A stretch of 63,820 nt of DNA, filler included, from Reclinomonas americana ATCC 50394 (lineage: Eukaryota): the NCBI GenBank assembly GCA_048213135.1. It is 12 parts of 12 records of this genome, joined end to end, with 100 filler letters (N's around TTAATTAATTAA, not from the genome) between each part and the next. Parts side by side here need not be neighbours in the genome. Positions count along the whole stretch, not along the records: positions 1 to 15,905 come from PS015980.1; 11 more parts are not named here. One strand, written 5' to 3'. Position 1 is the first letter of the stretch. Every line of letters begins with the position of its first letter. Position numbers and translations under genes: made by a program. This document shows positions 1 through 16,705 of this stretch, piece after piece. Below the pieces are notes generated by a model. The model had not been told where the DNA came from. It made no database searches and worked only from the letters and a program-made list of their open reading frames with translations.

Positions 1-404
1 GGTGGTCGTTGTTGTTGAGTGGTGACAGTGGAGTGGGACCAGGGACTTGTGGCAGTCGCGTGCTGGCTCTCATTGGGAGTAGAAGTGGCGAGTAGAGTGG
101 CTGCGTTAGGCTCCAGAGTGCTGGATCTGGCTAGCTTTGCAACCATGCCTTGTGAAGTCGAAGCAAGTGGCTGCTCAAGGCTTCAGAGCTTCTTGAGAAT
201 CGTGAAACAACTGCAACGTCGACGATCGCGATTGTGCACGTGATCATCAGTCCAAGAGCTGAGGTTGCGTGGAGATCTGCGAATGGAGGAAGACAAGCTG
301 CTGTCAGGCCGCAATGCGATCACGAGAAGACTTTGCAGTCTCTGCGCTCAGCGAACTCATATCAACTGACTTTCATTCCTTTCCATTCAACTTGCACGAC
401 ACTG

Positions 405-3091
405 CTACTTGGCTTCAACTTCACACAGCCGCCTGCAAGCCTCCACCAAGCCACTCGCCCGACCGCCTGCCGAGTAAAGCAGCGAGATTCCAGACAGCTG
501 CATGGCGCGACGGGCCTCGTCGAGACGCAGCTGCATCTCCTCCTTTCGCTGCTGGTCACCAGCGCAGCTCAACGCCGCACCAAGCAATAGTCTCGCGCGC
601 AGCGTCTCCATCCCCTCCTCACCAAAGGTCACCAAATGGGGATGATCAACACGAGCGGCAGAGTGAGGGACGCGATCAGCAGCAAGCGCACACATGCGGT
701 CGACACAGTTGCGGAGCACAAGAGCGGCCGGCTCGAACTGGCGGTCGCACAGCAACAGGTAGCCAGACTGACACAACAGCACTACAGACAGCTCAACGTC
801 GTCGCTGGAAGAAGCACTGGCAGCTGCCTCGGCCAGCAAATCAGCCGCCTTGCCAATTCGGCCACCCTCGACCGCGCTTGCAGCCTCAGCCTGAACGACG
901 ACAGGTTTAGAAACGTGAGCTGGGCTGCAAGAGCGTGGTGCAGCAATAAACCATGTTCGCGCGGGGAAGGTCAACAAGAACTGGGTCGAGTAGCGCCAAT
1001 AGAACCGCAGTGACTCCAGACAATTCGTCAGATTGGGAAGCCGAGGAGAGCGCAGGACTGCGCCCACAAAACACGGTGAGGGGCGAGAACGCAAGGAGGA
1101 ATATGGCATGCAACAGACCACCAAGGTGATTCCAGCGGCGCTGGCCGTGCAAGACGCGTCCACACAGGGTCCTGCTCCGCCACGCACAGCACAGGTGCGG
1201 GAGGCCACAACCATGGCTTTCTCTCAGCATACGGCGGCGGATCCAAAGCAGTTCGGAGGCACAGCAAAAGGGGCTGCAGAGGAGAAAGTGAGAGACGTTG
1301 CTGGTTTGAGAGGAGGTGAGAGGCCACGCACCGCGACAGGCGTGCTGCTGTCTGACGCCTCGTCGATCCACAATTGCACCTCGCGGCAGGCCTTCCACGA
1401 TACGTTTAGCAGTATCACCAGGTCGAACTCATCCACTCGGAGGGATCCGTGCGCGCCAAGGCGACGCTGGTGGACCGGAAACGACTGGTGGACATACATG
1501 CATTAGCTACGACATTGCGCGAGACACTGGGAGACGATTGCACAGACCTCTTCGGCATTCATGCTGCTAATGCTGACATGGTTCAAGATGCGTTCTGCAC
1601 GTGGTGCGTTGACGCAGCACTGCGGCCCCACAAGCTGCATGCTGACTCCAAGAGCTTCGAGTTGATCGGAGATACCTACGAGTTGCAGTTGCAAGTGAAC
1701 ACACAATGCGATCAACACTGCAGGTGATGAACTACAGTACCGCATGCGTCCAGATATCCTTTGTCGGCAGCAAATGCGTCCACGAAGGCTGCTGACAACT
1801 CCTCAGCTTGCGTGACAATCAGCATGCGCCCAGCAGCAAGGGCGTAGGGGAGAGTCACGAGCAGAGCGGAGAGTGCCTTTGGTGACGGCAACCCCACAAT
1901 GGCACCGGTGGCGGAGGTGGACATTGGCGACAGCTTGTGCCACAGGCTCGGTTCTGGCGCATCGGACGTCTGCTGGCGCTGCTGCGTTTGCTGGCGTGCA
2001 AAGTCGCGCACTGCATGCACAACCGGTACCACCTCCGGCGGCAACCGACTCGCTGGGGAATGAAGCAACGACGACCAGACGACATGACCCCACCGCTGGA
2101 ACGGTGAAAGGATGCGAGTGCAGCTGAGCATCGTGCCCAGCGCTCCAAAGGATTCCACTTCTTCAAAGTCCATCGTAGCTGCGGAGTCAAGTTAGCTTGC
2201 GATCATGACGCGGAGAACGAATCTGATTGACGTGCCCGACCTTCTGCGGTGGTCTCCGTGCCGCTGGTAGAATCAGCAACGGCCCAGTTCCAGTATGCAC
2301 CACATGCGACGTCTTCGGTGATGCTCAGCTGGCGAAGAAACACCACAAATCGAGCCAGCTGGCCGGTGATTGGCTGTGGAGAGAGGAGAGAAATCAGGGC
2401 ATGCATTGTCGCCATATTGATGAAAATCAACGCCACCTTCACCGTCGCATCACCGTGTGCAAAAGCCAGTGAAACGGCGACAAGCCGTGCACAGTCTCCG
2501 TCGAGTGCCAGCAGAGTGCGGGGAGAGAGGCCTTGTTGCACGAGAAGCGTGGCAAATCTGTGTGCGACCTCGGACGACTCGAGCACACGCGACCACAGGT
2601 CGCTGAAGCAGCGCTCGCAGAGGCTTTGGTCAATGTCGGGGGTGAGCGAGCTCATTGGTGGAGGGTTCGCGTTCTGCTTGTGTAAATCAAGAAAGTGAGG
2701 GCGACAATTTGGATTATCGCGGAAATTGCAAGGAGTAACGCATTCTCACCTGGCGTGCAGCGGCGACACGCCTGAGTGGAAGCGATGGGAAGGTGTGTAA
2801 GCAGGAATATCCATGAAAGAGTCTGACAGCGGAGATGACGGAGAAATTCGACAAGTCCGGCGCTGCCTGGCAAGCGTGACATAGTTCGGAAAAGCACGTG
2901 GCGAGGAATTGCACGTGAGATGAGTGACCATGCTCCGGATGCACAGCAAAATAGCATGCGATCTGCGGGGGAATCGGTCATGAAGCTGACTGTCGTTTCT
3001 CAGCAATATAAGTCTACAAAAAAAACAGAAAATGGGTCGACACTACTGGGAATCACTGCTCACCAAGTCGTCGCGCTTGGCGCGACCATGG
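405..3091 (-). CDS. Hypothetical multi-exon protein, helical/TPR-like C-terminal region; boundaries approximate
   Basis: Chain of protein-like minus-strand ORF segments (2652-2981, 2203-2655, 1712-2173, 1503-1745, 1224-1499, 405-1214). No family recognised and splicing not fully resolved. Confidence 0.45.
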
Positions 3092-3206
3092 GCTCGGCGA
3101 CGTGTGGTGTTCGCAATACACCGATCCCCCATGCAGATAAGTCGTCGCCAATTCAGCGACCACCACGTTGCCAGCGACCACCTCCACTCCGTGCTGCTGC
3201 CTTGCA

Positions 3207-3358
3207 CTATGAGGGTCCAGCCGACGCCGCTCCGACCCCGCCTTCCGCAGCCACCACCGCACACAATCGCTTCAGCTCGTCGTGCACATAGGATGCCGAA
3301 ACGCGCGTCGCTTGCGGCCTCTGCATCACACGAAGATTGAGTTCCCGTTTCTCTCCCT

Positions 3359-3408
<50 letters not shown>

Positions 3409-6400
3409 CTTCCCTTCTCTTCCCTTGTCCTTACCCGACACGTTGGTCTCTCTTCGTCACTCACTCTCTCCCACCCTTCTCTCTCTTTCCCTCTCACCCC
3501 ATCTATCTCTCTCCCATCACGCAACCCAGCACTGCCGAATCAGACTGCGAACGTCCTCCGGCACAGCTGCCCGCACTTCATCGTCGTCCAGGTCACCAGG
3601 TGAAGCGCCTGCTTTCATGAGATCTCCGATTTTCATCAACGCCACTCCACTGAATGGCTCGCGGCGAGTGGCGATAAACCAGAGCAGCGAACCGAGTCCA
3701 TACACATCTGCTCGTTCATCATACTGCGAGTGGCGAATGGCAAATAAGTGAACATCGCTCTCACGGGGCACAGCGAGAATAGAGAATGACATCTATGCAC
3801 CTGCTGTTCCAACATGGCCTCTGGCGCAGCATACGCCGCCGTTCCGTGATTCGATTGCATCTTGCCGAGTGTGCCGTGAATCTTGGCCTCACCAAAGTCA
3901 CACACCTTGGCCACGAGTCGGTCCTCGCTGATGAGAATGTCTGCGGACATTTAGGGAGGAGGTAAGTGACTCGGACAGGGGCGACATGCAATCGGGGAAG
4001 GAGAGCAGGATAAGAAGCTTGGTTGACAACGAAGTTGCTCTCACTTCCCAGCTGAGTCACATTCTTCCTCAGAAGAGCAAACGACAGAGAGAGCTGGAAA
4101 AACTCGCCGAATAACTCGAACGGAATATCCACCTTCCTCGCTTGACGGAATCTGAGTTATCTCTCTCGCTCACTCAGATCGCCTTTCTCCATCTTCAGGT
4201 CACCCTCCGTGACACGCAACTCTGCGGCTTGAGATCACGATGCACAACTCGACGCGAGTGCATGTACACCACCGCCGATACCACTTGCAAGAGCAGGCTG
4301 AGCAGGTGTTGTGTCGTCGTGTGCTCATCCTTCACAAGGTCGTGCAGTGTCTCGGCGTTGCCTCGCTCTCCTTCTTGACCGACATACTCGAGAACGAGAC
4401 CGAGGCCACTCGGATCGTCGTTGCACACGGCCATCAGTTTCACAATGTGTGAGTGACTGTGCGCGCAGGCACATGAGTGACGGCGGTCAGCATTCGGGTG
4501 AGGTTAAGGCGAATGCACGCAACTCGAGCTGCATCAGTAGTGAATGCTCGTTCTCGAAGCAATCTCGAATGCGTCTCCAGTCAGCAGACTGCGCATCACG
4601 TGCCTGCTGCCTGACAAAGTAGCGCTTGTACGCCACAGTCTGCGAGTCGCCACAGAGTCGGAGAGTGGCGTGGAAGACGGCATTCTGGCCTGCGAATGTA
4701 GGTTTATATGAGACGAGCCTAGACTACTGCAAGTAAGAGCGAAAATCTCACCATTACCGATCTGTTTTGATGACAGTTCAAGCTCCGTGAAAGGCACAAC
4801 AGGAGCGCGGATGGCGAATCTCGCTGCTCTCTCCGTCACTATCTCGGCCGTCACATTGATGCGACACACATCTGCGCGCGAGGAGAACGAGATGAGAGAA
4901 TGAAGACGTATCAAATGGCATGAGCAGTCGCAACTCTCGTATGCTTGGAACAGCAGACGAATACTCTCGTGCTGTCCGTCGGGGAACAGTGTGTGGAGCG
5001 AGTCACGCACCAGTCGCATGACGCTCACGTACTCGGCGTCCTCGAGTGCAGATAGACGGGCCAGGTGAGACACGCGGTGGCGCACATCCCTCAAGCTCTC
5101 CACGGCTCGAATCTACGAAGGAGAGAATCCAGTGAGAAGAATAGGAACGCATACTGATGTCTGCACAAGTTGAAAGAAGAAAACACCAACAGAAAGGACA
5201 GTGTAGAACTCCCCGTTCCTTCCCTCTCCTCCTTCTTTCGTTCCCCTCTAATGCTGCCCTCCCTCCTTCACTCTTGCGTCTTCTTGTCCTCCCTCCTCTC
5301 CCCCACACCTTGGCTTCGTCAGCAAGCAAGCGGACGGCCAGCCGGTCTTCGTTCGTGACAGGATCGAGACGGACGCGACTCTCCAGCAGATCCTCGTCAC
5401 GACAAGCGGCGGCAGGAACAAAAGTAATGTACAAGAGCAGAGTGCTCAGCAGCGACACATCCATGCCCATTGTCACTCCACTCCGCTTGAATGTGCGAAT
5501 GGCTTCGCGGTTGGAAGGGAACAATTCGACAGAGCGCATGCGAATGTTGCCGCGCTTGTCCAGAGTCATTCGGCAGTATCTGAGATGCAGAATGAGTGGA
5601 GATGGCACAGCGCAGCTCGACAACATATCGAGCACCTCGGCGGTGGAGCTGGGAGGCAGAGTTGCTCAATGTCGAACTCGCCAGGAAAGAAGTCAGCAAC
5701 AAGTTGCTGCAGGAGGGAGCCGAGAGCCAGGGGAATGATCTCGTGCACGACTTCGGTGAGCATCAAGATTGGACGGCGGTCGCTGTGGCATTCGAGAGAG
5801 AAATGAGGAAGAAAGTCGTGCGCACGAGGCAGAGCACCTGCCATCAGGAACCTGAGAAAATCCATGTGGAAGAGGGTGCGAAGCTGGCCTTCCATCTCAT
5901 CCACCCTCCGTCGCAGCTGATCCCGTTCGTTGGCAAGATCCGCAAGCTGCTCACGAAGAGTATTCCTCTCGTCGGCGGCGACACGCTCAGCATCAGCGAG
6001 AGCTTGTTGGAGCTGACTGCGTTCGGCCGTGAGCGACTCAACATCAGCTTGGGTGGTGGTCAGTTCTTCAGTGAGCGAATGATATTCGGCAGAGATGGCC
6101 CTGACGGTGGCCTGAGATGCGGCAAATGACTCGGCGAGTTGGTCACGCTCCGCAGTGACATTGGCTGTGGAGAGTGAAGTGAGGAACGCAAGTCGGATCA
6201 CGAGCAGAAACAAAACATCAGCTGGCGAAACAACGAACCGAGGGCACGCTCATTGTCAGCCAGCTGGGTGGAGATTCGATCCCGCTCGGACTGCAACTGG
6301 GCATTCTTCTGGTGCTCTTCGACCTTGCTCAGTTGCAACTGGGCGACAACGTCTTCGTGCTCACGTCGCTGTCGATCCCATTCCCGCTGCTGCTGCTGCC

Positions 6401-7393
6401 GCTCCTGCTGCGATGCAGCAAGATCGCGCTGGAGTTGCGCAAGGAGTGCGTCCTTGTCGGCGAGCGTGCGTGCGACGGTGGGATCATCAACAGCCGACTG
6501 CAGTTTACGAGAGTGCGAGGGAGACACGGAACGGATGTGAGAAGTGAGTTTCACGAGCAACAAGAAGCAGAGAGTGGCACTCTCCGTCTCACCTGGCGTA
6601 CTGGCACTGCGTATTCGCCAGGAATGACACAGAAGGACAAACACAGATGGTGGAGCATGAGCACGAACACAGCATATGCCAACAGACATAATGGAGGGCA
6701 TAATACCTGCAGGAGGCGGGGATCGCGGCTGCTGTTGTTGCTGTTGGCGTGGTGGTGCTGGTTGCGCAGCGAGGCGGTCGAGCAAGTCGGCAACTTGCTG
6801 GTTGCCGTTGTCACGTGCCCACTGAGCCGCTGTTTTGCCCCGCTTGTTGACCATGGGAATGAGGTCGGGGAAGCCAGTGGCGAGGAGTTGCACAATGGCT
6901 TCGTGGCCTTCCCGGGCAGCATAATGCAGTGCAGTGGACTGCGGATACTCCGCACGGTCATTGGTGACGGCCCGCACCATCTCCGGCGGACATCGTCGCT
7001 CATCGGCAAGCAACCACTCCACCACTTGCAGATGCCCATTACGAGCAGCCCCCATCAGTGGCGTCCAGCCATAGTCGTTGACCATTTGTGCGAGTTCCGG
7101 ACCGACACCACTCTCCTCCCACAAATACTCCAACACAGAGTGGTGACCGCTGTTAGCGGCGAGGTGAAACGCCGAGCCGCCATTCAATCCCATCTCCTCT
7201 CTCTTCAGCAAAGTGCGTGCGCCCTCACGCGCCAGCAACTCGCGCAGTGCCTTCACATCGCCATTCGCCGCCATCTCATATGCTTTCTTCCGAGGAGCAC
7301 TGCCACCAAAGAGGCAAAAGCAGAAGCGCGAGTGAGAGAGAGATCTAGAGAGAATGCCACCTGACAACAACAGCAATGCACAGCACACCTCAT
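3207..7393 (-). CDS. Ankyrin repeats - coiled coil - HEPN-like domain - protein kinase (TKL-like), multi-exon
   Basis: Spliced in frame from ATGAG|GT (7393): MSAPRKKAYEM; ANK motifs (GWTPLMGAARNGH, STALHYAAREGH); heptad coiled coil; MDVSLLSTLLL...VESLRDVRHRVSH (Rx4H at 5065-5082); kinase IGNGQN, VAYK, HRDLKPQN, CDFG, GTAAYAAPE, DVYGLG, IRQCW; stop at 3207. Confidence 0.85.
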
Positions 7394-7740
7394 TTTCTTT
7401 GATCCAGTGATTAGGGGAAGCAGCAACAACTCTCTCTCTCTCTCTCTTTCTGCCTCGCGCTGCGCCTTCTCTTCACACTCCGTCCGTGTTCTCGTTATTC
7501 CGCGTGTCCTGCTTTGTTGCGCAGCGGACACACGCACTACTGGCTGCGACGTCGCTCGCGAGAGGGAGAGAATGTGGAGCTGGGAAGGCAAATGCACACT
7601 GAATCAGCCCATGACTGCTGACAATGATTCGTGCCTGTGCAAGCAAACATCTACGCTTCATTTGCAGGCCGCCTCACGGAACACCAACGCCAGTGTGTTC
7701 CTCTCATGCCTATTTTGACTCATTCTCACTTCCATTCATC

Positions 7741-10700
7741 TCAGAGTTCCATCGTAAACTGCCCACATGCGTCGCGCAGTGCACGCATCACATCGAGCAC
7801 TTCCTGCGATGTCGGTCGTCTCGATTGCAAGCTCATGCAGCGCAAGCCGAGTTCGAACATGGGTTCGGCTATGCGCGGCGTCCACTCTGCTCCTCTGTCC
7901 ACCAATTCCATGGGGCGCAGCGAGGCAGGCGAGTCGTCCCATTCCACCGACCACTCCACCACAGTGGCCACGGGCTTGGCAGTGACCAGCTGCACCAGCA
8001 CCACGCCCATGCTGTACACGTCGTGTTTGGGGTGTGGACGGCGCACACGCATTGCCAGTGGGTCCATGTAGCCCAGCGTGCCGGCGGCGGTCGTCGTCTG
8101 GGAGATGGGAGATAGTGAGAGAATGAGGGAAGAGAGAGGAATCGATGACAACAAACCTTGCCATCTGCAATCGACCGCGCAATGCCAAAGTCACCGAGAC
8201 ATGGCTCGAAACGGTGATCGAGAAGCACGTTGGAGGGTTTGATATCGCGGTGCACAACATCATTCTGTGAGCGGAAATAAGTGAGGCAAGGCACGATGTA
8301 TGAAACATGACAGCAAGGAGAGAATAAAGCCGAGTGGAGAGTAGAGTACACGAGAAGCAGCGGAGACATCAACAGCGAAGACTGACGAGGAGAAAGAAAG
8401 AGACGAGCACACACACAGTAAGGGAGCCTCCACAGGGAGAGGAAACGAAGCGAGGCGTCCACATCGGTTAGACCTTGTGCAAGAACGCCACGGCCTCGGC
8501 CAGTCCGAGAGCAATTTGCACACGCTGCACAACAGAGAGTGGTGCTCGACCGGCGCGCGGTAGCAGCAACAGATCCTCCAGGTTGGGAACTCTGTGTGCT
8601 TTCACAGTGAGACGATGATGGATGAGAGGAAGGAGAGGAGGGAGATGGAAAACGCACTGCAGAGCCTTGTACACGAGACAGCGTGCCTTGTCGTCGCCCA
8701 CCGAGAAGCCGACAAGAGGCACAATGCGACGATCACGCAGGCGTCCGAGGGTGGCCACCTGTGAGAAGAGGGAAGAAGAATGAGGAGAGAGAGAAGAAAC
8801 AGGAGAGGGAGAGAAACACGAACCTCGCTCTCAAAGGACTCCATCGTCCATGGTGCCTCGGGATCGAGCACCTTGATGGCCACGTGCATCTCACGAAGCA
8901 GAGTGATGAACACGGCACCCTGACCACCCTCACCGACCTTGAGGCGGGGTGAGAATGAGTCGGTGGCTTGCACAATCTCGGACCACTCAAAGCGCTGCAC
9001 GGCGGTGTCGACTGTCGAAAGAGGAGATGAGAGGTGACAAATGAGTGAGAATGAAAGGACATTGAACACTGATATGAAGAAAGAAAGAGGACAAGAGACT
9101 GACCTTGGGTGAGGAGGAGATCCTGTCGCAGCTGGGAGACGAGTTGATTGCTTTCGTGCAGCTCTGCGGTAAGGTCGTCCTTGTCACGCAGGGCCTCAGT
9201 CAGCTGAGCGGTGATTTGATCTCGCTCTGCTTTCAGTTGGGAAATCTCTTGCTCATCCTCAGCATGAGCTCGCTGCCAGTCAGCGTTGGCTCGCTGCAAA
9301 TGCGCACTTCGTTGTTGCACTTCAGATAGACCACGTCGTAGCTCTGCGTTCGCAAGCTGCAGCTCCGTCCGCTGACGGTCGAACTCTCGCTTCTGCTGCT
9401 CTCGCTCCTGCTGTGACGCCACGAGATCGCGCTGAAGTTGGGTGACGAGCGCTTCTCTCTCGGCGAGATGGCGTGCCAACGCAGGATCATCACCAACCAC
9501 CTGCACAGGAGCCCGATGTGACACGAGAGAGCAAGTTGTGCATAGAGTGAACTCCATGATCGGTACTGACGCGGAGACTGTCGATCTCAGTCTCACCTGG
9601 CGTGCTGGCGCTACAAGTATCGCGGAGCAATACACAACGACACAGTATACGGTTGAGTGAGAGCAGGAATAACATGGATCACACAAGTTAACGGACAGGG
9701 AGACCACACCTGCTGGACGAAGAGGCTTTTCCATCAGAGGCTGTTGTCGTGGTGGCGATGGTTCCAAAGCGAGGCGATCGAGCAACTCGGCGACCTGAAC
9801 ATGTCCTCTTCCACGTGCCCACTGAGCCGCGGTCTTGCCCTTCTTGTTGACGACGGGAATAAGGTCGGGATAGCGAGTGGCGAGGAGTCGCACAATAGCT
9901 TCGTGGCCATTCTTGGCAGAGACATGAAGTGCAGTGGACTGTGGAAACATGTCACGGTCATCGGTAACCGCCCGCACCGTCTCTGGCGGACATCGTCGCT
10001 TGTCGGCTAGCAACCACTGCACCACTTGCAGATGGCCAAAGCAAGCGGCCCCAATCAACGGTGTTTGCCCATAGTCGTTGGCCAACTGCGCGAGTTGCGG
10101 TCCAATGCCAGTCTCCTCCCACAAGTACACCAGCACGGAGAGACGGCCCTGATGAGCGCCACATACAAATGCAGAGCGACCGTACTTATCCATCTCCTCT
10201 CTCTTCAGCAGCGTCTGCGCACCCTCGCGGGTCACTAATTCGCGCAGCGCCACCACATCTCCTTCTGTTGCCATCTCCCATGCTTTCTTTTGTCGGCGCT
10301 GCCTTGCAGCACTGCAACTAAGAAGTGCGGTGTGGTTTTAGAGGCCTAAAAAAATTAACAGTGAGTCGATGTGAAACTCGAACAAAATCTCACCTGTCGA
10401 TCGCACGGTGTGCTACTGCGAGTGTCTGTGGTCGAGCCGACGAACCGTGAATTTTTTTCAAGACAAATGACGCATGCGCACACGACGTGAGTGCCAAAGA
10501 CACGTGCCAACTCCGGTGAACCGGTACAACTACGTCTCACCCGTTGTACTGCGCATAAGGCACAACAAAAGAGCGAAGAATAAATTAGTCGACTTGTCAG
10601 TTATACAATCACCAAAGCACGAAAAACCAACAAAACTTGATGGCGGAGTAGGGGGAACAAGAACGCGACGTGACGGTGGTTGCAAAGCGAGGCGATCGAG

Positions 10701-11328
10701 TAAATCGGCCACTTTCCGTTTGTTATTGCTGCGTGCCAACCTGAGCTGCTGTCTTGCCCATCTTGTTGACCATGGGAATGAGGTCGGGGAAACGAGTGGC
10801 GAGGAGTCGCACAACGGCTTCGTGGCCTTCCATGGCAGCATAATGCAGTGCAGTTGACTGTGGATTGTCGTGGTCACTGGAGACCGCCCGCACCATCTCC
10901 GGCGGACATCGTCGCTCATCGGCAAACAACCACTCCACCACTTGCAGTTGCCCATTGTTGGCAGCAGTCAGCAGTGGCGTAAAGCCAATGTCGTCGACCA
11001 TGTGTGCGAGTAACGGCCCGACACCACTCTCCGCCCACAAATACTCCAACACAGAGAGATGACCTTGAAGAGCGGCACAGTCGAAAACAGAGCAGCCATA
11101 CTCATCCATCTCCTCTCTCTTCAGCAGTGTTTGTGCGCCCTCACGCGCCACCAATTTGCGCAGTGCCTTCACATCGCCTTCCTCTGCCATCTCCCATGCC
11201 TTCTTCCGTCGGGAGCGGGGAACACTGTGAACAACGCAAACACATGACGAATGACAATCACGACGAATGTGAGCATGCATTCTGACAATAACCCATCCTG
11301 AAATAGACACTCCTGCAACACACCTCAT
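7741..11328 (-). CDS. Double ankyrin module - coiled coil - IRAK/Pelle(RLK)-like kinase; one apparent +1 frameshift at ~10740
   Basis: Two ANK exons (~10640-11225, ~9710-10310) joinable through two small exons. Kinase: RFEWSEIVQATDSFSPRLKVGEGGQGAVF, VAIK, HRDIKPSNVLLD, DFG, GTLGYMDP, DVYSMGVVLVQLVT. Extra G in CAG-G-TTG relative to the paralogs. Confidence 0.85.
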
Positions 11329-11848
11329 GTTCTCGATTCCAACACAATAACGGCAATGGCTCGCACAACCAACTTTATCGCTGCCGATCTAGCAGCACAC
11401 TCGCAGCTCCTCCTCTTCCCAGCGCTTGCGGTTTGCGTATGAATTGGAGAGTTTTTCCGTGTCCTTGACGCGTAAATGCGACAAAATGGACGACGTCGTC
11501 ATTTTGTGACGTCGGATGCTTGCAAAGCCCCCAAACTGAAGCATCGTTTCACTTGGTGACGCGAGACGCACCACGTCCACCCAGGAGATCTCGAGAACAC
11601 TTCAACTGTCAAAGAGTGTGCCAGCAACGATGGTTAGCACACCTTCTAGCTCCGAAACTCGCAACGCGCCTGTTGCAGGTGCGCCCATTCTACGTATCAG
11701 GCACGCATGCTCATGATGGCCATCACGCGCCATGCCAACGCATCAACACTCGATGTCGGACTGTGCACTCTGATCGCGAAGTTGAATCATTCAAACGCTG
11801 AACACCCAGCAGCATGACTGCCATTGGTCATTCTCACTTACATTCATC

Positions 11849-14800
11849 TCACAGTTCCAGCGTAAACTGTCCACAAGCCTCGCGGAGTGCACGCATCATA
11901 TCGAGCACCTCCTCCGCCGTCGGTCGCTTCGATTGCACACTCATGCATCGCATGCCAAGCTCAAACATCGGTTCCGCGATGCGCGGCGTCCACTCTGCTC
12001 CTCCATCCACCAAATCCATCGCGCGCAGCGAGGCAGGCGAGTCGTCCCACTCCACGGACCACTCCACCACGGCGGCGACGGGCTTGCCAGTGACCAGCTG
12101 CACCAGCACCACACCCACGCTGTACACATCGTGCTTGGGCTGTGGACGACGCACACGCATCGCCAGTGGGTCCATGTAGTCCAGCGTGCCGGCGGCGGTC
12201 GTGGTCTGTGAGGTGAGAGAAGGTGAGACAGCGTAGAAGAGAGAAGGAGAATGGAGCAAACAAACCTTGCCATCGGCAATCGACCGTGCAATGCCAAAAT
12301 CACCGAGACAAGGCTCCAGGCGGTGATCGAGAAGCACATTGGAGGGCTTGATGTCGCGGTGCACCACCTCATTCTGCGAGCGGAGGTAAGGCGAGGCACG
12401 GCGCATGAAACCGCAACTGGAGGGCATGTGGAGAACGCATAACGCTTGCAGTGACAAAACAGCAAAAGAGTGACAAGGAGAGAAGAGAGAATACGAGCAA
12501 CAGAAGAGAGCAAAAGTGAGCAAGAGGGAGAATGAGCGGGAGAGAAGAGTGCGGAGGTGGAGTGCACGAGAGACAGAGAGAAGTAACACAAAAAGAGTGA
12601 CAAGGAGAGAAGTAAGATAGAGTGCACCCACAAAGAGCAAGAAAAAGGAGTGAGGAAGGACAACGCGAGAAACTAGGAGATGCAAGACGAACAGCCGAGT
12701 GAAAAAGGACAGAAGAGCGAAGAACGCAATGGCATCGTGCACCAGTGACTGACTCAGAGGGTCAGCCACATTGCACAAACCTTGTGCAAGAACACCACGG
12801 CCTCGGCCAATCCGAGACCAATCTGCACGCGCTGTATGACAGAGAGTGGTGCATGACCGGCACGCGGAAGTAGCAGCAGATCCTCCAGGTTGGGAACTCT
12901 GTGTGCATTCACAGTGAGACAATGATTGAGAAAGGGAGAAAGAGAGAAATGGACACGCACTGCAGGGCCTTGTAAACGAGACAGCATGTCTTCTCGACAC
13001 CCACCGAATAACCTACAAGAGGCACAATTCGACGATCGCGCAGGCGTCCGAGGGTGGCCACCTGCGAGGATGAAATGAATGATGAGGAGAAAGAAGAAAC
13101 AGGAGAGGGAGAGAGACACAGACCTCACTCTCGAACGACTCCATCGTCCACGGAGCGTCGGGATCGAGCACCTTGATGGCCACGTGCATCTCACGAAGCA
13201 GGGTGATGAACACGGCACCCTGGCCGCCCTCGCCGACCTTGAGGCGCGGTGAGAAGGTGTCGGTGGCTTGCACAATCTCGGGCCACTCGAAACGCTGGAC
13301 GGCGGTGTCGACTGTGGAGAGCGTGATGGGGAAGAGAGAAATGGTGAGAAAGAAGGACAAAAAGCACCGAAAGGTAGAGACGGCAAGACATATACCTTGA
13401 ATAAGGAGGAGGTCCTGTCGCAGCTGGGAGACGAGTTGATTGCTTGCTTGCAGCTGCGTGGTGAGATCGTCTTTCTCAAGCAGAGCTGCAGTCAGTTGAG
13501 AGGCAATTTGATCCCTCTCGGCTCGGAGTTGGGCATTCCTCTGCTGTTCCTCGGCCACGCTGTGCTGCAGCTCCGCGTTGGCTTGCTGACATTCAGTGAC
13601 TGCCCACTGCAGTCGCGCGATCTCCTGCTGCCGGTCACCATGAGCTTGCTGCAACTCAGCATTGGCTTGCTGCACATAGGCGACAATGGCCTCGTTCTCC
13701 CGTCGCTGTCGATCCCAAGCTCGCTGCTGCTCCTCTCGCTCAAGCTGCGCTGCCGCAAGCTCGCGCTGGAGTTGGGCGACGAGAGCATCCTTCTCGCCGA
13801 GCTGGCGTGCCAATGCGGCGAGATCATCACCAACAGCCTGCAACTGAAACCAGCGTGCCCACAAACNNNNNNNNNNNNNNNNNNNNNNNNNNNNNNNNNN
13901 NNNNNNNNNNNNNNNNNNNNNNNNNNNNNNNNNNNNNNNNNNNNNNNNNNNNNNNNNNNNNNNNNNNNNNNNNNNNNNNNNNNNNNNNNNNNNNNNNNNN
14001 NNNNNNNNNNNNNNNNNNNNNNNNNNNNNNNNNNNNNNNNNNNNNNNNNNNNNNNNNNNNNNNNNNNNNNNNNNNNNNNNNNNNNNNNNNNNNNNNNNNN
14101 NNNNNNNNNNNNNNNNNNNNNNNNNNNNNNNNNNNNNNNNNNNNNNNNNNNNNNNNNNNNNNNNNNNNNNNNNNNNNNNNNNNNNNNNNNNNNNNNNNNN
14201 NNNNNNNNNNNNNNNNNNNNNNNNNNNNNNNNNNNNNNNNNNNNNNNNNNNNNNNNNNNNNNNNNNNNNNNNNNNNNNNNNNNNNNNNNNNNNNNGGCAA
14301 TATGCAAGGCAGTGGATTGGCCATCAGTGACTGCCCGCACCATTGCCGACGGGCAGCGTTGCTCCTCGGCAAGCAACCATTCCACCACCTCCACTTGCCC
14401 ATTGAAGGACGCTTCCATCAGCGGGGTTACGCGATTATCAGTGACCGCGAGTGCAAGTTGTGGCCCGACGCCACTCTCCGCCCACAAGTATTGCAACATA
14501 GCGAGATGGCCACCGGAAGCGGCATTGGAGAAAGCCGTACCACCACCACTGTCCATCTCATCTCTCTTCAACAGACTCTCCGCGCCCTCACGTGACACCA
14601 ACTCGCGCAGTGCCTCCACATTGCCACTCGCCGCCATCTCCCATGCCTGCATCCTTTGCTGTTGCCTGTGATATAAACAGAACGGGAACACCGCTGTCAG
14701 CAATCACCACAACAAAACATGTGACAGACCTTGACAAACACACCTCGGTTGTTCTGGATAACGAGAGAGGTGTGAGCAGGGCAAGCAAAAGTATGAAAAA

Positions 14801-15444
14801 AGCACAACACGCACCCAGCGGCGCAGCCAGGCGATCGAGCAACTCAGCCACTTGCTCCTTGCCATTCGAGCGTGCCGTCTGCGCCGCCGTCTTGCCCTCC
14901 TTATCGGTCATCGCAATGAGATCCGGGTAACAGGAGGCAAGAAGAAAAACAATGACTTCGTGGCCTTCGTCGGCTGCACAGTGCAGAGCAGTGGACTGCG
15001 GAAAGTCGTCGCCATCATTCGAGACAATGCGCACCATCTCCGGCGGACACCGTCGCTCATCGTCGAGCAACCACTCCACCACATGCAAATGTCCATTGTA
15101 GGCGGCCTCCATCAGAGGCGACCATCCGTGCATGTCGACCATTTGTGCGAGTTGTGGCCCGACTCCACTCTCCTCCCACAGATACTCCAACACCGACAAG
15201 TGGCCGCGTTCAACAGCACAGCAGAATGCAGAGTTGCCGTACTTGTTCATCTCCTCTCTCCTCAGCAGAGTGTGGGCGCCCTCGCGTGCCACCAACTCGC
15301 GCAGTGCCTGCACATTGCCCTCAGCTGCCATCTCCCATGCTTTCTTCTTCCTCTTGCGACGAGAACTGCGCGCGGGACAAAGAAGTGGATGTGTGAGAGT
15401 GCTGATGATGAATCCGCAGTGGTGTGAAGCACAACGTGCCTCAT
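11849..15444 (-). CDS. Double ankyrin module - coiled coil - IRAK/Pelle(RLK)-like kinase (paralog; gap at 13867-14296)
   Basis: ANK exons ~14815-15365 and 14297-14665 joined in frame by a 10-nt exon (14744-14753). Kinase exons are near-identical to those at 7741-9010 (GEGGQG, HRDIKPSN, DFG, GTLDYMDP). First intron predicted as GC-AG. Confidence 0.85.
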
Positions 15445-15663
15445 GCTTTGCTGAAGATGTCGATGAAGTGGGCTTCCACCAGCTCTCTCACGCGCTTCGT
15501 TTAGTTGTTTTTCCGAGCGCAGGACAACTTTTCGTCGACGACGAGGAAGAAGAAGGGGAAGAGGATAAGAATAGGAGCAGGAGGAGGAGGACATGGATAT
15601 CCACGGGCTGCGGCGCATGACGGGGAGATTTCGCGAGGAAATTACTGTGAATCCTGGTGTCGC

Positions 15664-15764
15664 AAAAAAACAAACAATTCTCTCTCACCAACAAACAAGC
15701 AACAGCTGTCTTGATGACCAAGTTCAACCGTATCCAAAACATCAACACAGACACCAATCTTGAG
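15664..15764 (-). mobile_element. Second copy of the short retroposon-like repeat (3' end; may extend to the gap at 15906)
   Basis: About 95 bp nearly identical to 24660-24765 (tcaccaacaaacaagcaacag...gtcttgatgacca(a/g)gttcaaccgtatccaaaacatcaacacagacaccaatcttgag). Confidence 0.65.
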
Positions 15765-16705
15765 GCAGCAGCAGGTTCCTTGTGTGTGTGTGTTCGACCT
15801 CGGAGCTCCGAACAAGTCGAGCAACAACAACAACAACAACGTTAACAACAACACAACAACAACAACAACTTTACTAATCCAAACAGCAACACAGCTGCAT
15901 GATGANNNNNNNNNNNNNNNNNNNNNNNNNNNNNNNNNNNNNNNNNNNNTTAATTAATTAANNNNNNNNNNNNNNNNNNNNNNNNNNNNNNNNNNNNNNN
16001 NNNNNTGTGTTTGCAAGCTTGGTAGAACGAGGCAGAGTGTGAGTTATGCAGGTGGGAAGAGGGTCATCCGTGGATGTAGAAAGCCAAGACGAGGCGGAGA
16101 ACACACAATTTCCGAAGTTGAAATCGCACGAAACCGGCGTTGCTGGTATTGCGCACGCGCGCTTTCGCGGAGCAATGTTGGGGAAAGACGCACGCTCGGG
16201 AAAAGGGCGAAAGAACGTAGTCAGGGGTGAACTGATGGAGTGGAAGGAGGAAACGCGAAGAGGAGAGGGCGAAGGCGAAGACGTCGAAGAAGATGAGGAG
16301 AAACGAAAGGCTGCCATTGACTGGTGGCAATTGAGGCTGACGGTTGAGCATCTCTCGCCCAGTGAGCAGCACAATGTTGTTGGTGTCCTCGCCTGTCATG
16401 AAGCCGCTGGGATCGATATCGCATGCGCAGACAACACGAGAAATCGAAATCGAACAAATTGGAGGCGAGGACAAAATCTTCTCCTCCTCTCTGCTTGCGG
16501 TCGCATGCCGCACAATGTGCATGGATTATCTTTCATTCAAACCCGTTGAAGCTGTGAGCTGAAGGGGGCTTCAAGTTTCACAGTGTCCATTGTCCACAGC
16601 GAGCAACCCGCGCGCGCGCTTTTCATTTTTTTCGTCGTTTGCCCCCCACTTGAACCTGCGTGTGTGAGGAGAGTGAGAGAGAGTGTGTGTCTCTTGTGTG
16701 TGAGT

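Follow-up and report, generated by a model that had tools for sequence, protein, structure and literature searches.

The genome of Reclinomonas americana ATCC 50394 (assembly GCA_048213135.1) contains a lineage-specific expansion of approximately one hundred predicted cytosolic kinases of the RLK/Pelle/IRAK family. Two of them, named here gene A and gene B, are located on the minus strand of the analyzed stretch of 63,820 nucleotides, referred to below as the window. Window positions 1–15905 are contig C1035 (PS015980.1) of a 108-Mb, intron-rich assembly of 16,441 contigs, and the other contigs in the window are separated by N spacers. The heads of the kinases vary mainly on the ankyrin binding face, and therefore genes A and B likely encode internal recognition receptors, possibly for invaders. 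We propose with moderate confidence that the approximately one hundred copies constitute a repertoire of cytosolic receptor kinases activated by dimerization, which most likely serves for non-self recognition.

Gene A (10274–7741) has a predicted splice model with GT-AG introns only and an open product of 615 amino acids, in which an ankyrin block is followed by a coiled coil and a kinase. The ankyrin block (9710–10274; Pfam Ank_2, E-value 1.7e-15) includes an N-cap and four repeats, about 172 residues, and a Pro/Gln linker. Its repeat register agrees with alignments to designed ankyrin repeat proteins (DARPins) from the PDB. A 14-nucleotide micro-exon with AG/GT bounds (9597–9610), which has a 14-nucleotide equivalent in the neighboring gene, restores the frame between the ankyrin exon and the exon of the 132-residue coiled coil (9104–9500). 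The kinase (7741–9011) is composed of exons 9011–8824, 8758–8658, 8591–8474, 8264–8157, and 8097–7741. Gene B (15444–11849) contains a 147-residue coiled coil (13396–13837) and an open kinase (11849–13311; exons 13311–13124, 13061–12961, 12898–12781, 12373–12266, and 12205–11849; Pfam Pkinase on the C-lobe, E-value 3.7e-19), the four introns of which have the same positions as those of gene A. The two genes share 260 of 290 residues in the kinases, 82 of 132 in the coiled coils, and 58–67% in the ankyrin blocks.

The head with two ankyrin blocks put forward in a preliminary description of this locus agrees with the model of gene B, and not with gene A as it is in the window. The predicted model of gene B begins with a 5-nucleotide exon (15444–15440) with a GC donor, continues with the first ankyrin block (15365–14815; Pfam Ank_2, E-value 1.5e-20), and connects it in frame through a 10-nucleotide exon (14753–14744) to the second block (14298–14665; Pfam Ank_2, E-value 3.7e-16). 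In the window, a stretch of N interrupts the second block and hides how it connects to the coiled coil; contig C388, which carries a near-copy of the locus, shows the end of the block and a 14-nucleotide exon. Upstream of gene A, another ankyrin block (11224–10720; Pfam Ank_2) with its own 5-nucleotide start exon (11328–11324) could belong to gene A as its first block or form a short gene of its own. It has one extra base near position 10741 relative to C388, and straight reading meets a stop. Therefore, two blocks can be joined in gene A of the window only by using a predicted alternative donor, whereas splice models of C388 provide an open path through both. A candidate 32-nucleotide linker exon (10394–10425) with AG/GT bounds is in frame in the window and C388 models and is predicted only.

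The kinase strings quoted in the preliminary description are present in gene A exactly, as RFEWSEIVQATDSFSPRLKVGEGGQGAVF, GTLGYMDP, and DVYSMGVVLVQLVTAKP. Gene B reads RFEWPEIVQATDTF... (FEWPE), GTLDYMDP, and DVYSVGVVLVQLVTGKP, so that the third string was borne out and the first two are exact for gene A only. The highest hydropathy of gene A in a 19-residue window is 1.63 and is located inside the kinase, which is in line with the cytosolic architecture proposed earlier. A hydropathy scan of gene A identified no membrane segment, and the N-termini are basic; no dedicated signal-peptide predictor was run. No death domain was found upstream of the kinase, where Pfam gives only ankyrin and coil-like models. 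Both genes end where the kinase domain ends and thus do not encode a C-terminal U-box.

The membership of the two kinases in the RLK/Pelle/IRAK family, which the preliminary description claimed and suggested checking by phylogeny, is supported by sequence comparisons of several kinds. An IQ-TREE phylogeny of 64 rows places the nine rows from R. americana in one clade (support 100/100), which is nested within a clade (100/96) containing 31 plant, three Capsaspora, and two Artemia rows. A subclade of the R. americana kinases with plant U-box kinases and an Artemia IRAK4-like protein (93/83) is not firm. When each kinase lobe alone was compared to PDB sequences, the top kinases were BRI1, IRAK4, IRAK1, and LysM receptor kinases. 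Of the 60 best PDB rows obtained with a profile of the whole domain, for which frames of paralogs were used without splicing, 58 are plant receptor or receptor-like kinases or IRAKs; the best match scored 103.7 bits and the first other kinase, PknB, 58.1 bits. The generically named entries 2qkw, 3hgk, 5xd6, 8hoa, and 8hod in this ranking are presumed by us to be RLK/IRAK kinases. Among 379 fetched proteins, scored kinase domain by domain with multi-kinase proteins having dominated the whole-protein ranking, plant U-box kinases had the top single domains (186–175 bits, others at most 160 bits). Word-based homolog searches, each with 8000 candidates scored, returned plant RLKs and bacterial kinases and no close relative, which is weak evidence of absence.

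Residues characteristic of the family and of active kinases are retained. All 96 complete kinase models have a tyrosine gatekeeper, which aligns with the LLVY of BRI1, and PMC7955167 describes a tyrosine gatekeeper for IRAKs. The segment F-x-x-x-E-[IL]-x-x-AT-x-x-F ahead of subdomain I is kept across paralogs, and a LysM receptor kinase and IRAK1 align with it. The lysine of VAIK, the glutamate of helix αC, the aspartate of HRD, the catalytic-loop asparagine, and the aspartate of DFG are all present in genes A and B; 89 of the 96 models are unbroken and have all five.

The size of the family was estimated by searching the genome with its own sequence. Scoring 150 of 500 candidates gave 152 family matches, which is a lower bound. 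We took 118 places, for which 94 stretches were fetched, omitted places with less than 1.8 kb of sequence, and aligned the 118 anchors with splicing. Complete kinase models were obtained for 96 anchors, nearly all with the identical four introns, and three of them contain breaks. Allelic inflation was considered as a source of the copy number. Among 93 unbroken kinase genes, six pairs are at least 90% identical in DNA including introns, and the pair formed by the window and C388 is just outside this filter. The allelic share is somewhat above six pairs and cannot explain the expansion.

An ankyrin block precedes the kinase in 78 of the 96 models. A single block is the norm; nine of the 78 have two adjacent blocks, four of which are the window and C388 genes. 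Seventeen copies lacking ankyrin were examined, and their upstream sequences contained WD40 repeats (seven copies), TPR (one), UEV (one), USP7 C-terminal domains (one), or nothing recognized (seven). FN3 is additionally present in two of the WD40-headed copies, which are 95% identical to each other. The USP7 head and one WD40 head continue into the coil in a single open frame, and the other alternative heads are linked by adjacency. In locus L083 (1610–4876, minus strand of G000:C102), the USP7 C-terminal domains are in frame with the family coiled coil just upstream of the Pelle kinase, and USP7 ICP0-binding and UCH pieces are positioned further upstream. It may be that a deubiquitinase was captured here, or that the head is an integrated decoy. 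Locus L070 (1381–2454, minus strand of G000:C175) has a UEV domain, which we take to be TSG101-like, immediately upstream of the coil and kinase; it is possibly also a decoy head. The WD40 heads at L087:2691–4253, L107:2070–3023, L056:2941–4017, L102:700–3019, and L091:3247–4167 are built from near-identical 42-residue repeats with few variable columns. Two of these heads have a candidate Met-Gly start and could be myristoylated.

The ankyrin block is variable and the kinase conserved, as the preliminary description had proposed for a sensor fused to a kinase. Mean identity in 67 genes is 72% in the ankyrin block versus 86% in the kinase. In the same genes, the entropy of the ankyrin block is 2.78 bits at 23 binding-face positions versus 0.64 bits at the 145 others. 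The 16 most variable columns are all on the binding face. None of 100,000 random sets reached the result of the face set. The face was defined as repeat positions 2, 3, 5, 10, 13, and 14, of which we assume positions 2, 3, 5, 13, and 14 to be those randomized in DARPin libraries. DARPins are described in PMC6389260, the available part of which does not list the face positions used here. In 29 of 33 disjoint pairs, the face has more amino-acid change than there is silent change elsewhere, by approximately threefold in the closer pairs. Ankyrin codons outside the face have ratios of nonsynonymous to synonymous substitution rates (dN/dS) of 0.24–0.48, indicating purifying selection. The two closest pairs, including gene A of the window and C388, have no amino-acid changes at approximately 58 face sites each. 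Diversifying selection on the ankyrin face is the likelier explanation of the pattern, although it is not proven.

The coiled coil noted in the preliminary description is genuine. The hydrophobic period is 3.52 in both the coil of gene A and that of the neighboring gene, and the lengths of paralogous coils are stepped by seven residues: for 37 of the 43 genes that could be measured, and for 13 of 18 distinct lengths, the distance between two anchor motifs is in a single class modulo 7. The register of the coil is thus conserved, as expected for an oligomerizing coil.

The gene directly downstream of gene A, on the same strand, has an open predicted splice model of 917 amino acids in 14 exons and the order ankyrin, coiled coil, HEPN-like domain, and kinase. 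Its ankyrin block and long coiled coil (5852–7393) have homologs in genes A and B; 122 of 172 ankyrin and 40 of 77 coil residues are identical to gene A. Thus all three genes of the array share the front end, as claimed earlier. The kinase (3207–4871) is TKL-like and outside RLK/Pelle; it is 29% identical to that of gene A and groups with oomycete TKLs (98/88). The domain between the coil and the kinase (4935–5782) contains the motif R-H-x3-H (Rx4H), which reads RHRVSH in the window and RNRVSH or RNEVSH in diverged paralogs and is kept in all aligned copies. Matches to HEPN_DZIP3 or HEPN_Swt1 below the cut-off were found at collinear model positions in six of nine paralog pieces scanned, the best being HEPN_DZIP3 at 19.3 bits against a cut-off of 27, and an Atlas search also points to HEPN. 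Pfam gave no match for the two window exons of the region itself, a genome search with PF18738 recovered no locus of this HEPN-kinase family, and a PDB sequence search with a HEPN profile had no match. Low-confidence models of the domain, with predicted local distance difference test scores of 39.8 and 53.1, retrieved only generic helical bundles in a fold search; RnlA was among the matches, with a Z of 5.2 that does not exceed background. It is reasonable to call the domain HEPN-like, in agreement with the preliminary description, and it may be an RNase. Farther downstream, a multi-exon gene at 405–2900 of the minus strand has six open frames and no Pfam match. At diverged loci L142–L144 (G000:C33 and C105), HEPN-like kinases have at least four tandem ankyrin blocks instead of one.

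The near-copy of the locus on contig C388 is colinear with window positions 7742–15636 at 90–94% identity and then joins sequence matching window positions 3–166. G000:C388 lacks the interval 98–7741 of the window (7.6 kb), in which the HEPN-like kinase and a further gene are located, and no HEPN or neighbor-kinase match was found in positions 1–24400 of that contig. Haplotypes or recent duplicates appear to differ here by the presence or absence of the interval. Between the window (7741–10274) and C388, the ankyrin blocks of gene A are 98.8% identical, and the kinases differ at many more positions, which suggests gene conversion among the kinase exons of this pair.

Based on the architecture and variation of the family, an activation mechanism can be proposed. 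A ligand would bind the variable ankyrin face, the coiled coil would hold or bring two chains together, and the conserved kinases would then be switched on by trans-phosphorylation. The heptads of the coil point to dimerization. IRAK4 and plant receptor kinases are activated by trans-autophosphorylation, and by analogy the same may apply to the kinases studied here. From the evolutionary pattern we infer that the ligands may be foreign and the role of the receptors immune.

Several observations weigh against this interpretation. The approximately unbiased (AU) test, performed on a subset of 51 rows from which 11 of the 22 RLK rows and two long bacterial rows were dropped, nearly rejected the placement of the kinases together with TKLs and the neighbor family, but left it unrejected (p=0.078) at a cost of 34 log units. 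The outgroups of the kinase tree were oomycete TKLs, the neighbor family, and bacterial kinases only, without Raf, MLK, RIPK, or tyrosine kinases; a search for TKL outgroups gave only two further oomycete proteins among 13 matches. The glutamate of the APE motif is absent from all 96 copies, being replaced by leucine in 76, including gene A, by methionine in 18, and by valine and isoleucine in one each. Its usual partner, the arginine of subdomain XI, is kept in all 96. Because of the absent glutamate, kinase activity may be atypical, which does not lower the assignment to the family. A non-RD signature is typical of many pattern-recognition receptor kinases, and 95 of the 96 copies are RD kinases lacking it. 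The face positions were fixed after the entropy profile had been viewed, and position 10 was added; the 19 positions taken from DARPin libraries alone have an entropy of 2.82 bits. Face codons have also diverged more at their silent sites (0.44 vs 0.25 at four-fold sites), and therefore dN/dS within the face alone is 0.7–1.4. Local hypermutation or conversion could contribute to the variation of the face. Furthermore, most links between heads and kinases rest on adjacency.

According to the preliminary description, the Pelle kinases could hetero-oligomerize with the HEPN-kinase neighbor and activate it, forming a sensor/executioner pair. Contact would be made by the coil that they have in common, and activation would concern the RNase of the neighbor. 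Of the 42 matches to the neighbor family in the genome, 13 have a Pelle locus within 10 kb, always in the same orientation, and seven of them are directly downstream as here, whereas such area makes up no more than 1.6% of the genome. The families have a homologous first half of the coil. The ankyrin heads are intermixed: the nearest head is attached to a Pelle kinase for 13 of 17 HEPN heads, at DNA distances down to 6.5%, and the head tree has 16 label changes versus 15.7 after shuffling. However, separate head clades of the two families were unrejected (AU p=0.45). An HEPN kinase is within 10 kb of only 21 of 127 Pelle loci, and 106 Pelle loci and 29 of the 42 HEPN loci have no partner within this distance, although the counts are limited by contig ends and short contigs inflate the unpaired ones. 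An obligatory pair is unsupported, because the 90–94% identical locus on C388 lacks the HEPN-like neighbor. The neighbor also looks self-sufficient, since it has its own kinase and its own variable head (2.36 vs 0.68 bits). Shared arrays together with exchanged heads and shared exons are a simpler account of the co-clustering that does not require binding. Partnership is possible, but we consider the pair an unlikely explanation; the HEPN-like kinases may be another output, which uses the common head pool in parallel to the Pelle kinases rather than as their fixed partner.

The combination of a variable face and a conserved kinase would also fit a constitutively dimeric kinase, the ankyrin head of which picks substrates such as effectors of intracellular parasites. 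The missing APE glutamate and short activation segment could mean altered regulation, and the UEV and USP7 heads are protein-binding modules. Nevertheless, a rigid coil of 100–190 residues would be better suited to signal transmission than to substrate presentation, and substrate selection is quite unlikely to be the main function. Self/non-self recognition within the species, as in allorecognition, mating, or kin discrimination, or alternatively prey or developmental signaling, rather than defense against parasites, appears very improbable. The conserved WD40 repeats with few variable columns (21 repeats) resemble repeats of fungal allorecognition NLRs (PMC4986451). However, the closest pairs, including gene A of the window and C388, have no face changes, and haplotypes would be expected to differ, if the pairs are allelic. 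We give least weight to a neutral reading, in which the genes were duplicated in tandem and exposed ankyrin residues changed through relaxed constraint or local hypermutation, with no function in recognition. The raised silent divergence in face codons and the broken copies (the three among the complete models and fragments) are in its favor, but most copies are intact, ankyrin codons outside the face are under purifying selection, amino-acid change on the face is about three times the silent change elsewhere in closer pairs, and the heptad register is kept. In a bolder version of the non-self recognition reading, more than 100 receptors would form a genome-encoded intracellular immune repertoire, and Pelle kinases would have been recruited to immunity independently for a third time. 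DARPin-like, WD40 or TPR, and decoy (UEV and USP7) heads would plug through one coil standard into either a Pelle kinase or an HEPN RNase-kinase, and mixed dimers would lead to RNA destruction. We regard this version as speculative and unlikely.

Large RLK/Pelle expansions are regarded as a feature of streptophyte plants built on membrane receptors. If the proposed reading is correct, a microbial eukaryote would have expanded Pelle kinases for recognition independently and inside the cell, to approximately one hundred soluble copies with diversifying heads. The family provides a testable entry into the detection of invaders by protists and is relevant to the question of whether Pelle/IRAK kinases have served immunity since a common ancestor or by convergence. 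Its heads may be a naturally occurring collection of ankyrin binders that share one fixed scaffold. RLK/Pelle forms one clade with IRAK and Pelle, is patchy in chlorophytes, and is present in a glaucophyte (PMC10868138). An IRAK4-type kinase, much duplicated, was placed in the last eukaryotic common ancestor (10.1101/2020.01.27.920793). Phytophthora has five IRAKs, four with membrane segments and all predicted to be inactive, and an ankyrin-headed TKL of another subfamily (PMC3019232). IRAK-type kinases are inferred to date to the last eukaryotic common ancestor and are found in oomycetes and Capsaspora, so that the occurrence of a Pelle kinase in a protist is less surprising than the preliminary description implied. 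What is notable is the size of the expansion, the variation of the binding face, and the interchangeable heads. A literature search covering mainly open papers, without supplements such as the species tables of the kinome preprint, found no description of the ankyrin–coil–Pelle architecture or of such an expansion in a protist. An Atlas search with the ankyrin–coil frame returned generic ankyrin clusters only.

Other contigs in the window contain features apart from this family. WD40 repeat frames flank a contig spacer at 25935–27819 on the minus strand, and the plus strand has a match to D123 (Cdc123-like) at 40193–41683 and to peptidase S9 at 35448–36071.

Of the known systems, plant U-box kinases, recorded as U-box domain-containing protein 51 or RING-type E3 ligase, have the closest kinase domains by score and share the weak subclade. 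They also have no membrane segment and a coil ahead of the kinase; we take them to be the group labeled RLCK-IXb/PUB-VI. Unlike genes A and B, most of them have a C-terminal U-box and no ankyrin head, and they keep the APE glutamate. Animal IRAK/Pelle kinases (IRAK1, IRAK4, and the Artemia IRAK4-like P0411) are cytosolic, have a tyrosine gatekeeper, rank high in the PDB comparison, and belong to the same clade. They use a death domain and adaptors, as exemplified by the Tube-type death domain match in P0411, whereas here the sensor is fused to the kinase, and they are few per genome (PMC10868138) compared to the approximately one hundred copies here. The Capsaspora TKL/IRAK protein P0261 and the oomycete IRAKs are likewise Pelle-type kinases of eukaryotes that are neither plants nor animals. 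P0261 also has a repeat head, but, unlike genes A and B, one of leucine-rich repeats, with three kinase domains. An ankyrin profile matched none of 392 fetched proteins, mostly kinase hits, and there is thus no ankyrin–coil head among them. Plant transmembrane receptor kinases have a signal peptide, ectodomain, and membrane helix, whereas the hydropathy maximum of gene A is low and inside the kinase. The neighbor shares with RNase L and DZIP3-type HEPN proteins the combination of ankyrin, kinase, and an HEPN-type RNase domain, putative in the neighbor, in one chain, and the Rx4–6H motif with a polar second residue; DZIP3-type HEPN occurs in fusions with ankyrin, TPR, and NACHT, and KEN in fusions with kinase and ankyrin (PMC3710099). 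The neighbor differs in its order of ankyrin, coil, HEPN, and kinase, and in a DZIP3/Swt1-like rather than KEN-type domain, with matches below curated cut-offs. Fungal NLR-like proteins have ANK, WD40, and TPR sensors, the three repeat types also present in the R. americana heads, with variable concave faces under selection, and heads and effectors that are combinatorial (PMC4986451), and the R. americana family works in a similar way in its logic. The fungal proteins use NACHT or NB-ARC domains, neither of which is present here, and the coiled coil is the likely oligomerization device of the R. americana kinases.

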